Notes: generated by a model not told the origin, from the sequence alone. Counted from the stretch's first letter, positions 2,878 to 61,113 are shown. The stretch: DNA of 64,000 nt from a virus (IMGVR_UViG_3300011336_000135:2871-66870); one strand, 5' to 3'. Made by a program: numbers and translations.

Positions 2878-3046
2878 AGTTGTTGTGGATTACGCCTACC
2901 CGTGCATGATGGCGGAGAAGGCACTGAAGGAACTGCACCAAGCCATGCTGCGAGGTGATGTAGACGCTGCCCTGGAGCACGCGCTGACTGCGATGGCTGA
3001 AGCCAAGCTGACCTACAACGCCATTCGGGCTACGAAGGAGCAGTGA
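2867..3046 (+). CDS. Small hypothetical protein (59 aa), not in ORF track
   Basis: GTG start after AGGAAGGA; reads VTVEVVVDYAYPCMMAEKALKELHQAML...KEQ*; the stop overlaps the next ATG (TGATG). Confidence 0.65.
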   Translation: MTVEVVVDYAYPCMMAEKALKELHQAMLRGDVDAALEHALTAMAEAKLTYNAIRATKEQ

Positions 3047-4033: not shown

Positions 4034-4058
4034 CGCGTAGCCCCACTGGGGCTATGCT
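4030..4058 (+). promoter_or_regulatory. Sigma70-like promoter with a palindrome in the spacer
   Basis: TTGACG-N17-TATGCT; the spacer region contains the perfect inverted repeat TAGCCCCA-C-TGGGGCTA. Confidence 0.6.
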
Positions 4059-7628: not shown

Positions 7629-7649
7629 GGGGGCTACGGCCCCCTCTTT
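7629..7649 (+). terminator. Intrinsic terminator-like hairpin
   Basis: GGGGGC-TACG-GCCCCC followed by TCTTT. Confidence 0.55.
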
Positions 7650-51161: not shown

Positions 51162-51178
51162 GTTATACACTGTATAAC
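51162..51178. promoter_or_regulatory. 17-bp palindrome, copy 1
   Basis: GTTATACA-C-TGTATAAC, 8 nt upstream of a -35 box. Confidence 0.65.
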
Positions 51179-51186
51179 AGAAAATG

Positions 51187-51214
51187 TTGACAGGTAACGC
51201 ATACATGTTACAGT
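51187..51214 (+). promoter_or_regulatory. Sigma70-like early promoter
   Basis: TTGACA-N16-TACAGT. Confidence 0.6.
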
Positions 51215-51899: not shown

Positions 51900-51913
51900 C
51901 CTGACCGACACGA

Positions 51914-51943
51914 CCCCGCAGCCCCACGCTGCGGGGTTTTTTT
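51914..51943 (+). terminator. Intrinsic terminator
   Basis: CCCCGCAGC-CCCAC-GCTGCGGGG followed by seven T. Confidence 0.85.
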
Positions 51944-52070
51944 GTGCCTGTAGGGACCGGATGTCAAGAGTACGCGAGCGGCACGCCAGCACGCGAGTCG
52001 CAGCCCCCGCGCCTGTACGCGAGCCCGAACACGCTGCACACGCATTGCGCGAAGCCTTCGACGAAGCAAT

Positions 52071-52087
52071 GTTATACAGTGTATAAC
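52071..52087. promoter_or_regulatory. 17-bp palindrome, copy 2
   Basis: GTTATACA-G-TGTATAAC (reverse complement of copy 1). Confidence 0.65.
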
Positions 52088-52528
52088 AACGTATAGCGCC
52101 GACACCCGATCCCCACGAGTCCGCGAGGCAGGGCCGGGGTACGCGAGAGCAGCCGCCCGGATTGTTCCGTGTTCCGTTTCGTTCTACCCCTTTAAATATG
52201 TCTACTAAAGATAGATAGATACCCTAGTGTAGGAACTAGTCAACCACGAAGGTAGGGGGCTCTACCCCACGCATTCTCCTGAGCGGGAACTTGGGAACAC
52301 AACTCCTCCACCCCTCCGTAACCCCTTGTCGCACAACAACTTTTTCTGTTCCAGCACCCTAACTACACCGCCAAAAAACGATGTAAATTCCATACATCTC
52401 AACCCCGCCCCAAAGTAAAGCTCATATTAGGGTTTGTGTAATTATTTACACACGAAACTAACACGTTTGTAAGGTTTGTAAGAAAAAGTCTGTACATTAC
52501 ATACGACAGCCCACCCGCCAGCCGGGGC

Positions 52529-52557
52529 TTGACACCCCCAAACCCGCTAATTACGCT
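52529..52557 (+). promoter_or_regulatory. Sigma70-like promoter
   Basis: TTGACA-N17-TACGCT. Confidence 0.6.
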
Positions 52558-52605
52558 ACACTCAGAACGTGCTGTTCCGGCACGCCCCTGTAAGGACTTA
52601 ACACC

Positions 52606-53778
52606 ATGCGCTACCCCGACGCCAACACCCTCGTCCAGCATGTCATGCTGCAACTCAGCCCCAACGGTAAGCCCCGTGCCGTCTTCCGCCACAACGAGCG
52701 CAACCTCTCCACCTGCTGGGGCAAGGAAGTGCCCTACTGCATGGCCGATTTCCTCCGCACGGGCAAAGCCCCCGTGCTCGTCTTCGACAACTACATCGCA
52801 CCCCTCTCGATCTACGTCGATGCCCTGGAGGCCACACAAGACCTGCCTGTTGACACGCCACATCAGTACATCGGATACACCCCGGGGCCGCACGAGAAAG
52901 TCTGGACCCTGCTCGACAAAGACATGGCATCAACCATAGCGTCACAAGACACTCTGAAGATGTTGCAGCGTCACGCAACCACGAAGACCTACGAGCGGGT
53001 CAAGCAGGAGATGCCCGATGAGCGTCTGGAGCATGTGCTCACTGAAGTTGCCAATAGGATGAGCCGCACCCGTGCGCTGGTGCGCAAGATCTTGATCGAG
53101 GCCCAGGTCGAGCTGCCTGTGGAGCACAAGCCCGAGAAGCCGAAGGCTGTCGTGAAGCCGCACAAGTTCAGCACCGCGCTGGCGTTCAAGGGGCACTTTT
53201 CCATACTCACTGCCATCGCGCAGCAGTGCCGGGTCAGCGTGATTCAGCGCAGACGCAAGAACGCAGGAGAGCCCGAGCCGTGCTCGTTTTCGTTGGCTGA
53301 CCTGCATGACCCCACGGCGTTGGGCGGGTTCCCCATCCGCTGCCCGGTGCTGGGCGTCGAGTTGAACTGGGAGGAGAGCATGTCTTGGTACGCGCCCCGC
53401 GTGGGGCGGTACGACCCGAACGGGTTCTGTGTGTCGGGCAACATCGTCATCATGAGCAAACTCGCCAAGCGCATCACCGAGGGCTTGTCGGTGCGTAACT
53501 TGGAGGGGCTGCTGAAGCAGCACCCCTACGCTGGTACAGCGTTCAAGGAATGGGCTTCCAAACACCCGGTCCCCTCGGACCTAGCCACGCGCCTGCTACT
53601 CAACCTCCCGTACCACCCCCTGCCGCCTATGCCGACCATCGAGGAACAGCGTGAAGCCCAACAAGCAGGCTTCGACCGGTATCACAATCGGGTAGGAATT
53701 ACCGACACCGTGCCGACACTACCCAAGACGTTCAAGTCAGCGAAGGAGATATTGAGTGGTAATTGGGATGAGGATTGA
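52606..53778 (+). CDS. Hypothetical protein with a degenerate His-Me finger-like domain
   Basis: AAGGA RBS; RCPVLGVEL...RVGRYDPNGF...GNIVIMS..AK. Confidence 0.65.
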   Translation: MRYPDANTLVQHVMLQLSPNGKPRAVFRHNERNLSTCWGKEVPYCMADFLRTGKAPVLVFDNYIAPLSIYVDALEATQDLPVDTPHQYIGYTPGPHEKVWTLLDKDMASTIASQDTLKMLQRHATTKTYERVKQEMPDERLEHVLTEVANRMSRTRALVRKILIEAQVELPVEHKPEKPKAVVKPHKFSTALAFKGHFSILTAIAQQCRVSVIQRRRKNAGEPEPCSFSLADLHDPTALGGFPIRCPVLGVELNWEESMSWYAPRVGRYDPNGFCVSGNIVIMSKLAKRITEGLSVRNLEGLLKQHPYAGTAFKEWASKHPVPSDLATRLLLNLPYHPLPPMPTIEEQREAQQAGFDRYHNRVGITDTVPTLPKTFKSAKEILSGNWDED

Positions 53779-53811
53779 CACTAAACGGTACCGCTATCCA
53801 AGAACAATAAC

Positions 53812-53840
53812 TTGACATAGAGCGCTGAATGGCATATAAT
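53812..53840 (+). promoter_or_regulatory. Consensus sigma70 early promoter
   Basis: TTGACA-N17-TATAAT, a perfect match. Confidence 0.88.
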
Positions 53841-53845
53841 TATGT

Positions 53846-54300
53846 CTAGTCGGTTGGGAAATCAAACGACACGCTCTTTTACAAGTTGTTCTTGCACAAC
53901 GCCGTGAGGCGCTGTAGGCATAGTGTTCAGTCGCGCCGTGATCAACGGCGCTATCGTTTACGACAGGTGTTACTGCTGAGTCACATCAACCCGTGCGTGT
54001 CGCATCACGCAGTAAGAGGTCAGTGGCAGGTAGGAAGGTGAATGTATCCCCCTGCAAGGGTGCAGCACATCGTAAAGGGTCCGTAGCACTCCCTGCATAT
54101 CGTTTGGGGGTAAGAATCCCTCGACGGTACATATAACGCGCCGCATGGGGATGTGAACACGGGTTCGGAAATGACTCGCCCGTTGGATCGTCCCCTGCTT
54201 AAAGGGCATCTGAAAGACTACGCGCATTGCGTCGATGTGGTGCCTTTTAAGCAGTAATGATGCTGCGCCTGGGAGCAATGCTCCCTTAAAACCGGAGAGT
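53846..54300 (+). ncRNA. Candidate structured leader / ncRNA (~450 nt)
   Basis: No convincing CDS; multiple stems including a 14-bp helix 54195-54208/54241-54254. Confidence 0.5.
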
Positions 54301-54303
54301 TTT

Positions 54304-54591
54304 ATGGAGATCATCACCAACAACGTGCCACGCCCGATGCTGGCGCTCTATGAACTGCCTGCCGATATGCAGAAGGAGTTCGACTACGTGCTGCCCGACG
54401 ATGGCTCATGCCGCTTCGTCAAGTACAAGGGCTGCTGGATGGACTGCTTCGATATGCAGAGCATCGGTCGTGAGTTGGGCTTCGACCAGTTCAAAGGCTG
54501 GCATGGCATCGCATCCGATAGTTTCTTCAGCGGGACGTTGGTGCGTTTCGTAGACGACGATCAAGTGATTGTCGGTCGTTACTTTAGTTAA
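54304..54591 (+). CDS. Hypothetical early protein
   Basis: GGAG RBS; W.G..SDSFFSG..VR pattern. Confidence 0.7.
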   Translation: MEIITNNVPRPMLALYELPADMQKEFDYVLPDDGSCRFVKYKGCWMDCFDMQSIGRELGFDQFKGWHGIASDSFFSGTLVRFVDDDQVIVGRYFS

Positions 54592-54601
54592 CCGCAGTTA
54601 A
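54588..54601. promoter_or_regulatory. Palindromic operator-like repeat TTAAC-CGCA-GTTAA, copy 1
   Basis: Identical copies at 56364, 57796 and (inverted) 61063. Confidence 0.7.
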
Positions 54602-55312: not shown

Positions 55313-55497
55313 CTGAGACCGAATACTTTTTCGGGCCTGGGAGGTTTTTCTCCGAGCGCATCGAGCAATACGTTTCCCCCCTGGAGCTTCAGCGCCGGGA
55401 GCGTGTGGCAGTTGGCAGGATCTGTCGCTGCAATGACTGTTTTTGTTGTGAAGAAAGGAAGAACCATGACAAAGCACATCTGCCCGCAGTGCGGTGA
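55309..55497 (+). CDS. Small Cys-rich protein
   Basis: GGAG RBS and ATGA overlap; ICRCNDCFCC cluster. Confidence 0.5.
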   Translation: MTETEYFFGPGRFFSERIEQYVSPLELQRRERVAVGRICRCNDCFCCEERKNHDKAHLPAVR

Positions 55498-55678
55498 CCC
55501 CGTGCCTCAAGCACGCGTAGCGTTAGGCCGCAGACTCTGCCTGCAATGTGGGGAAGAGCACGCTCGGGTCGAGCGCCGCTCGTGGACCGTGGCACCCATG
55601 CACAAGAGCAACTACATGCTGCTCGTGGATCGCTCGGACCTGCTGGGTATCAACAACAAGGGTGGACTCCACCGTTAA
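55466..55678 (+). CDS. DksA/TraR-like C4 zinc-finger protein
   Basis: CPQCGDPVPQARVALG..LCLQC, after AAGGAAG. Confidence 0.6.
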   Translation: MTKHICPQCGDPVPQARVALGRRLCLQCGEEHARVERRSWTVAPMHKSNYMLLVDRSDLLGINNKGGLHR

Positions 55679-56136: not shown

Positions 56137-56367
56137 ATGAAAGTCAACATCGAAGTCACCGATACGTTCGGTCACGAGGCTAACTACTCGTGGGTAAAAC
56201 GACACACGCTAGACCTCATCGACACCTTGTCGAACTACGCAGTCGTGCGCCGTGTCAAGCAGCACATCGGCTGGAACGGTAAGCGTTGCACTACCGTTAA
56301 TTACGGTGACATGATAGAATTAAGACCTTACGGTGAATGCACAGTGTGCTTCATTACGTTCGCTTAA
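56137..56367 (+). CDS. Hypothetical early protein
   Basis: TDTFGHEANYSWV pattern; GGAG RBS. Confidence 0.7.
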   Translation: MKVNIEVTDTFGHEANYSWVKRHTLDLIDTLSNYAVVRRVKQHIGWNGKRCTTVNYGDMIELRPYGECTVCFITFA

Positions 56368-56377
56368 CCGCAGTTAA
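56364..56377. promoter_or_regulatory. TTAACCGCAGTTAA, copy 2
   Basis: Exact match, directly before CCAGGAG. Confidence 0.7.
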
Positions 56378-57795: not shown

Positions 57796-57809
57796 TTAAC
57801 CGCAGTTAA
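57796..57809. promoter_or_regulatory. TTAACCGCAGTTAA, copy 3
   Basis: Exact match, just after a stop codon. Confidence 0.7.
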
Positions 57810-60826: not shown

Positions 60827-61066
60827 ATGTTTGAAGTTCAAGCTGGTGTGCCGATGACGAGCGCACGCCGTGGCCGTAAGGCTGTGGAATTCCCGTTTGC
60901 AAGCATGGACATTGGTGACAGCTTCCTTGTCCCGTGCAATGTCGCTGCCAAGAACGAACTGAACAACTGGCGTCGGAAGATCCTGTTGGCGAAGAAGGCC
61001 TTTGGTAAGGGCCAGTTCGCAACCGGCACCGTGTCGGACGGCATCCGTGTCTGGCGTACCGCTTAA
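60827..61066 (+). CDS. Small putative DNA-binding protein
   Basis: FPFASMDIGDSFLVP...GIRVWRT; has its own promoter and terminator. Confidence 0.7.
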   Translation: MFEVQAGVPMTSARRGRKAVEFPFASMDIGDSFLVPCNVAAKNELNNWRRKILLAKKAFGKGQFATGTVSDGIRVWRTA

Positions 61067-61076
61067 CTGCGGTTAA
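61063..61076. promoter_or_regulatory. TTAACCGCAGTTAA, copy 4 (inverted)
   Basis: TTAACTGCGGTTAA overlapping a stop codon. Confidence 0.7.
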
Positions 61077-61086
61077 CCCCGCACTC

Positions 61087-61113
61087 AACGCTCTGCCTCG
61101 GCAGGGCGTTTTT
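61087..61113 (+). terminator. Intrinsic terminator
   Basis: AACGCTCTGC-CTCG-GCAGGGCGTT followed by TTT. Confidence 0.7.

Follow-up and report, generated by a model that had tools for sequence, protein, structure and literature searches.

A boxA-bearing early leader carrying a covarying structured RNA in an uncultivated phage clade, and its probable role in antitermination

Antitermination dependent on boxA is a textbook feature of rRNA operons and of phage lambda: boxA is the binding site of NusB-S10, and antitermination of the rrn type is effective chiefly against Rho-dependent terminators, with little effect on intrinsic ones. The put element of phage HK022 is made of two stems over about 70 nt and acts without Nus factors or boxA. 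Complexes of the rrn type are nucleated mainly by boxA, boxB being dispensable; they resist Rho, tether the 5' end of the transcript and chaperone RNA folding (PMC8632103). boxA is also found outside rRNA, as in the 5' UTR of suhB (PMC5725501) or upstream of CRISPR arrays, where, going by the citation of Stringer et al. 2020 in PMC7862264, it guards long untranslated transcripts against Rho. In phage T7 the element lies between promoter A3 and gene 0.3 (811-823, CGCTCTTTAACAA). Mutations of this boxA antitermination element are reported to make gp2 dispensable, altering infection as expected of such an element, so that transcription from A0-A3 is considered to be boxA-antiterminated (PMC3709561). 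The gene-free region of phiEco32, for its part, holds four boxA copies.

The locus analysed here lies in a window of 64 kb, the whole stretch of DNA studied, out of a 66.9-kb virus record of IMG/VR. It comes from an uncultivated phage; in its large terminase it shares about 45% identity with HTVC023P-type and DSL-LC04 phages. A first-pass annotation had pointed out a perfect TTGACA-N17-TATAAT followed by no ORF with a ribosome-binding site until 54304, and both observations are confirmed. The sigma70 promoter (53812-53840, + strand; -35 TTGACA at 53812-53817, 17-bp spacer, -10 TATAAT at 53835-53840) matches at 12 positions out of 12, has the top score among the three stretches scanned and is kept as TTGACATAA..TAyAAT in all 12 homologous loci; transcription is predicted to start near 53847-53849. 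The ORFs of the leader are not conserved and the next convincing gene starts at ATG 54304, behind the Shine-Dalgarno GGAGAG 54294-54299 (start region 54294-54306, + strand), which leaves about 460 nt without conserved reading frame between the promoter and this ATG. The flagged stretch is the untranslated 5' leader of the main early operon of the phage. The first early gene encodes an acidic protein of 95 aa; neither it nor any of its 84 homologs has a match in Pfam or PHROG, and cultured phages offer solely distant relatives of it and of one neighbour. Ten large early/middle ORFs of the + strand were scanned and showed no phage RNA polymerase, and the clade appears to depend on the host polymerase throughout. 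Candidate terminators occur within the + strand gene block at 61087-61110, 4035-4057 and 7629-7644.

Homologous leaders were searched in IMG/VR and JGI metagenomes with the flanking proteins and with short conserved DNA words, and the contigs encoding 12 of the 84 homologs of the 95-aa protein were also retrieved. Twelve distinct leader versions of 346-610 nt were obtained, that of the window (53847-54306) and eleven from metagenomic phage contigs: L041:1542-2003, L023:2034-2503, L035:1594-2003, L004:4251-4735, L014:140-485 (minus strand), L025:2029-2503, L002:2577-3003, L017:1634-2129, L020:1775-2147, L036:438-851 and L039:828-1437. All 12 have the same promoter upstream and stand at the head of a block of small early genes, with one copy per genome. 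The first gene behind them varies: it is the 95-aa gene, a DUF6926 gene or a gene of 121-126 aa, so that the leader belongs to the promoter and the operon start rather than to one gene. That it keeps its place despite these changes points to a role at the level of the operon, not of a specific gene. In L017 (2127-2492) and L039 (1435-1815) the 121-126-aa gene is additional, lying between the leader and the 95-aa gene.

With blastn, 50,697 phage records gave no match. When 185,579 bacterial species genomes were scanned for the motifs, 17 matches came up, which we attribute to chance because every one is devoid of any companion motif; no host or prophage copy was thus found among these genomes. 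The first DNA-motif scans of viral and metagenome sequences yielded mostly chance matches, and six loci (L008, L010, L012, L013, L015 and L016) were discarded on inspection. The more distant homologs of the 95-aa gene (L029-L033) have different upstream regions, without boxA. Two of these share another conserved leader of about 275 nt (L029:2229-2503, L030:2225-2503), divergent from a DUF5906 primase gene. Its promoter is TTGCGT..TATAAT; it lacks boxA, carries a hairpin resembling a terminator (AAAGGCCCAG..CUGGGCCUUUGCUUU) and might act as an attenuator or a small RNA. Ahead of still more distant homologs are 850-970 nt without called genes (L031:1649-2503, L033:1535-2503), with repeated CTCTAGGGG-type motifs in L031 and no boxA in either region.

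Two elements open the leader, neither of which the first-pass annotation mentions. The first is a 5' terminal hairpin GUCG-G-UUG(G)-GAAA-(U)CAA-A-CGAC (53849-53870, + strand), at the position of the boxB of rrn. It begins at +1 to +3 in all 12 leaders; its stem covaries (GUCG/CGAC, GUUG/CAAC, AUCG/CGAU) and its loop is of the GAAA type, or UUCG in three homologs. The second is boxA, GCUCUUUUACAA (53873-53884, + strand), a predicted NusB-S10 site with one mismatch (A8U) to the boxA of rrn, GCUCUUUAACAA. It occurs once per locus, about 25-110 nt after the predicted start (26-99 nt by a second count, 26 nt in the window), and 2-3 nt after the 5' hairpin or after a second hairpin UUAAAC..GUUUAA. 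Although the flanking sequence and the length of the leaders diverge widely, boxA is present in 12 out of 12, and in all of them the order is that of rrn, with the hairpin 5' of boxA. The gamma-proteobacterial consensus is GYTCTTTAANA (PMC5725501); GYUCUUUAANA is found exactly in 9 of the 12 leaders, bearing in mind that this consensus may not be that of the host. boxA reads GCUCUUUAACAA in seven leaders and GCUCUUUAACAG in three, the remaining variants besides that of the window being GCUCUCUAACAA and GUUCUUUCACAA. Single mismatches to the consensus occur in the window (GCUCUUUUACA, position 8, A to U), in L025 (position 6) and in L002 (position 8); the boxA of suhB was inactive as a C4T/T6C double mutant (PMC5725501).

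A close likeness is with the P2 leader of Escherichia coli rrnB, which reads in NC_000913 as a hairpin, ACU and GCUCUUUAACAA, in the same order and with the same spacing, and in which a long structured untranslated RNA also follows boxA. The phage leader differs by the lack of a clear boxC (a CUGUGGGC-like element exists in some lineages but is not universal) and by its RNA of 0.35-0.6 kb, which runs into protein-coding genes; it does not derive from any bacterial sequence found. T7 shares with it strong sigma70 early promoters, an untranslated leader with an rrn-type boxA, structured RNA and a small acidic first gene product. However T7 has three tandem promoters (A1-A3) and only about 110 nt from boxA to gene 0.3, no 5' hairpin immediately precedes its boxA, and beyond boxA there is neither common sequence nor common fold; the phages are unrelated, and here no RNA polymerase of their own is seen among the ORFs scanned. 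With the nut/N system of lambda the leader has in common an RNA signal of a phage early operon, a boxA beside a hairpin and the use, predicted here, of the host Nus factors. But the hairpin comes before boxA in most homologs, while in lambda boxA comes before boxB; the boxA is rrn-like and not the weakened form of lambda, and there is one site per genome. As Pfam and PHROGs reveal no N-like arginine-rich protein among ten scanned ORFs that flank the leader on both sides, the early ones immediately downstream included, and as the first gene product is acidic, a lambda-type nut/N system was rejected. Finally, the CRISPR arrays and the suhB 5' UTR resemble the leader in having boxA outside rRNA, but they belong to cells and have no conserved structured RNA joined to them.

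The hairpin-boxA opening like that of rrnB P2, and the roles of boxA in T7, rrn and CRISPR loci, led us to read the leader as a Nus-factor (boxA) antitermination and anti-Rho leader of the main early operon, transcribed by sigma70 polymerase and joined to a structured RNA. We give this reading, drawn from sequence comparison, a probability of roughly 0.55; the leader most likely recruits host Nus factors. The first-pass annotation had also proposed an antitermination leader for the early operon, which agrees with the conserved rrn-type boxA and its position, similar to that in the rrn P2 and T7 leaders; a factor-independent model like that of HK022 put, which it cited, is improbable. The host sigma70 RNA polymerase would transcribe the leader from the consensus promoter. 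In the nascent RNA the terminal hairpin would fold first, and the rrn-type boxA would then be exposed and bind the host NusB-S10; NusA, NusG and probably SuhB and S4 would join, turning the polymerase into an antitermination complex in the style of rRNA operons. With about 460 nt untranslated behind the strongest promoter, the leader should otherwise be an obvious target of Rho: the complex would shield from Rho-dependent termination some 420 nt of vulnerable untranslated RNA, together with the early and middle genes, as is reported for the boxA behind the early promoters of T7. Faster elongation and help with RNA folding may be further effects. What follows in the leader is a series of helices maintained by compensatory change, between which lineage-specific hairpins are inserted. 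Some 50 nt ahead of the first start codon, a perfect duplex of 15 bp or more is a possible RNase III site like R0.3 of T7; processing at 54195-54254 may occur, judging from the length of the helix and from the T7 analogy. Since boxA function needs about 12 nt, the antitermination reading nevertheless does not require some 300 nt of structure that are conserved and covary.

Is this structure that of an RNA? The minimum free energy of the leader is -175 kcal/mol (z = -3.2), and 1 of 100 shuffled sequences folds as well; the energy is thus low compared with shuffled controls, but the reverse strand reaches z = -3.3, equal to the + strand, and folding energy alone is weak evidence. From one homolog to the next the ORFs of the leader (23-106 aa) are not the same, and because peptide matches are alike in all three frames the conservation is that of nucleotides and not of a protein; a coding function was accordingly discarded. 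Rfam (15) yields no match over the whole window at gathering score, one spurious match only over 53700-54400 at E up to 10, and, at E up to 1, nothing relevant for six homologous loci. Neither a tRNA nor a tmRNA is detected by ARAGORN. The earlier proposal of a new phage ncRNA holds insofar as helices covary, as detailed below, and no Rfam family matches.

The seven stems listed in the first-pass annotation are all present where it placed them, and their fates among homologs differ. Immediately after boxA are two small hairpins, GUUGU-UCUUGC-ACAAC and CGCC-GUGA-GGCG, the latter with a GNRA loop (53885-53911, + strand); they are common to L041, and other lineages carry different hairpins at this place. 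Then comes a lineage-specific variable domain (53912-54097, + strand), common only to L041 and L025, which contains GCGCCGU/ACGGCGC (53933-53951) and UGCGUG/CACGCA (53994-54011) and ends at its 3' side with the conserved junction motif CAC-UCCCUGCA. The TGCGTG/CACGCA stem displays two compensatory pairs relative to L041. The CGCC-GTGA-GGCG, GCGCCGT/ACGGCGC and GGGAGC/GCTCCC stems are invariant or lineage-specific, and GCGCCGT/ACGGCGC has an A.A mismatch in L025. The leaders are mosaics, conserved blocks being separated by lineage-specific hairpins.

The first conserved block behind boxA is a hairpin with the loop UAAGAAU (54098-54129, + strand), fully paired in all 12 homologs and covarying. 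Its outer stem has 7 bp (54098-54104 / 54123-54129) and is followed by a bulged U (54105), an apical stem GGGGG/CCCUC (54106-54110 / 54118-54122) and a loop of 7 nt (54111-54117), which reads UAAGARN across homologs. The outer stem varies as UAUCGUU/GACGGUA, AUGUGCU/GGCGCAU, AUCCUC/GAGGAU or ACGUCU/AGAUGU. On the raw MAFFT alignment 88.7% of the cells are paired and five pairs are changed on both sides; this covariation score is reached by none of 500 shuffles, and slid controls are at most 56% paired. The GGGGG of this hairpin had been assigned otherwise, TGCAAGGGTGC/GCACTCCCTGCA (in RNA letters UGCAAGGGUGC/GCACUCCCUGCA) being nested within a CCCCC/GGGGG stem. That arrangement is not retained: the GGGGG 54106-54110 pairs with CCCTC 54118-54122 in 12 homologs out of 12, and L041 is devoid of the proposed 5' partner. 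Neither is a pairing of GGGGG with an upstream UYCCUSSR motif, which shows no covariation in L036 and L039. The 7 + 5 bp geometry and the loop (U1/G4/A5/U7) recall an acceptor/T-arm minihelix of tRNA, but this is a resemblance only, contradicted by a bulge on the 3' strand in L036 and L039, a loop of 8 nt in three homologs, the lack of CCA and the lack of an ARAGORN match.

The second block is the GGGGRUG..CGYCCCC hairpin (54147-54195, + strand), paired in the window as GGGGAUG/CGUCCCC (54147-54153 / 54189-54195) with an optional inner stem ACGGG/CCCGU (54159-54163 / 54179-54183). Compensatory variants exist, GUAGG/CCUGC in place of the inner ACGGG/CCCGU, and GGGGG/CCCCC. The GGGGA/TCCCC stem of the first-pass annotation (54147/54191) belongs here and undergoes a swap from A-U to G-C among homologs. 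The apical block is GGAAAUGACUCG (54167-54178), and GGAAAYNACUCG is kept in 11 of the 12 leaders.

The third block is a long helix in which CUGCUUAAAGGGCAUC (54195-54210) pairs with GGUGCCUUUUAAGCAG (54239-54254), 16 bp in the window (54195-54254, + strand). It had been described as a 14-bp helix (54195-54208/54241-54254); it is in fact longer, at least 15-16 bp. In the anchor-based table it has at least 15 bp in all 12 leaders, starting with CUGCUU../..AAGCAG, and its apical region carries the semi-conserved motifs CRCGC..GUCSR. A covariance model, R1, built from eight sequences, retrieved the 12 leaders at E of 1e-13 or better. On its alignment all 168 of the 168 cells of the helix are paired, against at most 52.5% in slid controls, with five compensatory pairs (A-U to G-C, A-U to U-A, G-C to C-G); this alignment is fitted to the model and leans towards structure, but the anchor-based table gives the same pairs independently. 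R1 scores 74 bits on the + strand and 24 bits on the minus strand, a bias which, together with the many G.U pairs, supports an RNA read from the + strand. In the window boxA could also pair with the 5' side of this helix; as that pairing is lost in L036 and L039, it was set aside.

Behind the long helix, and in competition with its bottom four pairs, is a small hairpin GCAGUA-AUGA-UGCUGC (GCAGYR..UGCUGC; 54251-54266, + strand). Its alternative is a long-range pairing of four pairs between CGCA 54142-54145 and UGCG 54264-54267 (YGCA:UGCG). Both can pair in all 12 leaders, the changes being solely one-sided and wobble-compatible. The GGGAGC-AAU-GCUCCC hairpin (54271-54285, + strand) is optional, found only in the window, L004 and L020 (3 of 12). 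A universal long-range closing helix was also sought; it was seen in one lineage only (CCUGC/GCAGG in L002, L017 and L020), and the core looks like hairpins in series. The apical loops are constant: UAAGARN, GGAAAYNACUCG, GAAAGA and ACCUGAA. Several helices kept by compensatory change and topped by constant apical loops are typical of recognition sites. A CsrA sponge was considered and abandoned, the number of GGA being, by eye, about that predicted from composition.

The main rival reading is that the conserved core (the long helix with the three hairpins UAAGAAU, GGAAA..ACUCG and GCAG/CUGC) is a functional RNA in its own right, boxA merely securing its complete and chaperoned synthesis, as the first product of infection, in the way it does for rRNA. 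Such a core could serve in anti-defence, or bind a protein of the host or the phage as a decoy or platform. Besides the compensated helices and the constant loops, it speaks for this reading that the fold is independent of the following gene, that the core is conserved while whole hairpins between its parts are gained or lost, and that it matches no Rfam family. A further argument comes from the phiEco32-like coliphages, in which host-type promoters and an rrn-type boxA likewise precede a large, conserved and structured untranslated RNA ahead of an early gene. They differ from our phages, which form another, uncultivated clade, with a single promoter, a single boxA and a shorter, unrelated RNA: BLAST between the two matches boxA words only, and R1, with filters off, finds no significant match in the gene-free region of phiEco32, so that homology is rejected. 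Two unrelated phage groups thus show the design associating boxA with a large RNA, each with an RNA of its own. On the other hand, no terminator and no proven cleavage site lies between the fold and the first gene, and the hairpins stand in series with no universal closing helix. A functional RNA is clearly less likely than the antitermination reading. Its stronger form, in which the conserved core represents a new class of phage RNA, active as such by binding or decoying a host or phage factor and not just the untranslated front of the early message, is more doubtful still; in that case it would be the earliest RNA of the infection, and the rRNA antitermination and chaperone complex, hijacked from the host, would assist its folding.

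The comparison with HK022 put, which the first-pass annotation had cited, suggests instead an RNA acting in cis through direct contact with RNA polymerase, which would become resistant to termination without host factors. The position fits, since both are structured RNAs acting or proposed to act in cis on elongation, directly downstream of an early promoter, and the stem-loops 54147-54195 and 54195-54254 abut without spacer, loosely like the two stems of put. But the conserved boxA, as a NusB-S10 binding site, implies a mechanism dependent on Nus factors, the leader with its 350-600 nt is many times longer than the put of about 70 nt that is devoid of boxA, and the conserved loops would be left unexplained. 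We find this alternative improbable.

Another view would make the leader a cis-regulator of the translation or stability of the first gene, whether riboswitch, RNA thermometer or autoregulatory operator, switching between alternative pairings of GCAG/CUGC and of boxA with the Shine-Dalgarno. Mutually exclusive pairings do exist around 54195-54267. Moreover the minimum-energy fold pairs GCUCUUU of boxA (53873-53879) with GGAGAGU of the Shine-Dalgarno (54294-54300), 420 nt apart, and this complementarity is found in most homologs. However it is lost in L014 and L039 and may be merely generic between pyrimidines and purines, no known riboswitch model matches, and the same leader stands before three unrelated first genes. 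A gene-specific regulator seems to us quite improbable. Lastly, that there would be no RNA element at all, the region encoding small proteins or acting at the DNA level (origin, packaging site or operators), could invoke the equal folding z-scores of the two strands and ORFs of 34-51 aa, but is very improbable given the lack of a conserved ORF, the equal matches in every frame, the G.U pairs that would be A.C mismatches on the other strand, the strand bias of R1 and the compensatory nature of the changes.

Altogether the leader is most probably a boxA-antiterminated phage early leader carrying a new structured RNA family; the promoter, boxA, the architecture, the covariation and the absence of coding come directly from the sequences, and the binding of Nus factors, the effect on Rho and the processing are what we infer from them. 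An uncultivated phage clade, unrelated to T7 and lambda, copies the layout of rrn leaders at its single strong early promoter and attaches it to an RNA of 0.35-0.6 kb whose helices are kept by compensatory change. With the phiEco32-like case, this suggests that many phages may evade Rho at the very start of infection by hijacking the transcription machinery of host rRNA, and that large structured early RNAs of phages may be more widespread than catalogued. Should the core act as an RNA, large early RNAs guarded by boxA would, with the phiEco32-type RNA, form a recurrent phage strategy.

Other signals were observed around these loci. Palindromes TTAAC-N4-GTTAA occur four times in the window (54588-54601, 56364-56377, 57796-57809 and 61063-61076) for 0.02 expected. 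Related ones, TTAA(A)C-N3-5-G(T)TTAA, are found in L004, L014, L017, L020, L023, L025, L035, L039 and L041; they sit upstream of the leader, beside boxA in 9 of the 11 other leaders, and at junctions between early genes. The length of their arms is specific to each phage, and their loop is the Shine-Dalgarno GGAG in L041, L014, L017 and L023. They could be RNA hairpins presenting or masking ribosome sites, or operators of a phage regulator. A second palindrome, of 15 bp, TTATACA-N-TGTATAA, is present twice in the window (51163-51177 and 52072-52086) for 0.01 expected: one copy abuts a TTGACA-16-TACAGT promoter at 51187, the other lies in an ORF-poor region of about 670 nt (51939-52605) behind a terminator (51912-51938). 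These copies look like operators for a dimeric regulator.

On a related contig, L003, a strong intrinsic terminator GCTGCTTAATA-CCGCC..GGCGG-TATTTTGG follows each small early gene (2590-2680 and 2915-3000), and these genes share the same ribosome site, AACCGGAGAGACTGAAATG; with a terminator after each gene, read-through would be needed to express the block. Finally, an early gene of the window (55403-55678) encodes a protein with a weak match to the C4 zinc finger of the DksA/TraR type (phrog_54, E = 1.4e-4, below the Pfam cutoff). Judging from this match, the protein may bind the secondary channel of the polymerase, which would be relevant to the control of host promoters of the rRNA type.
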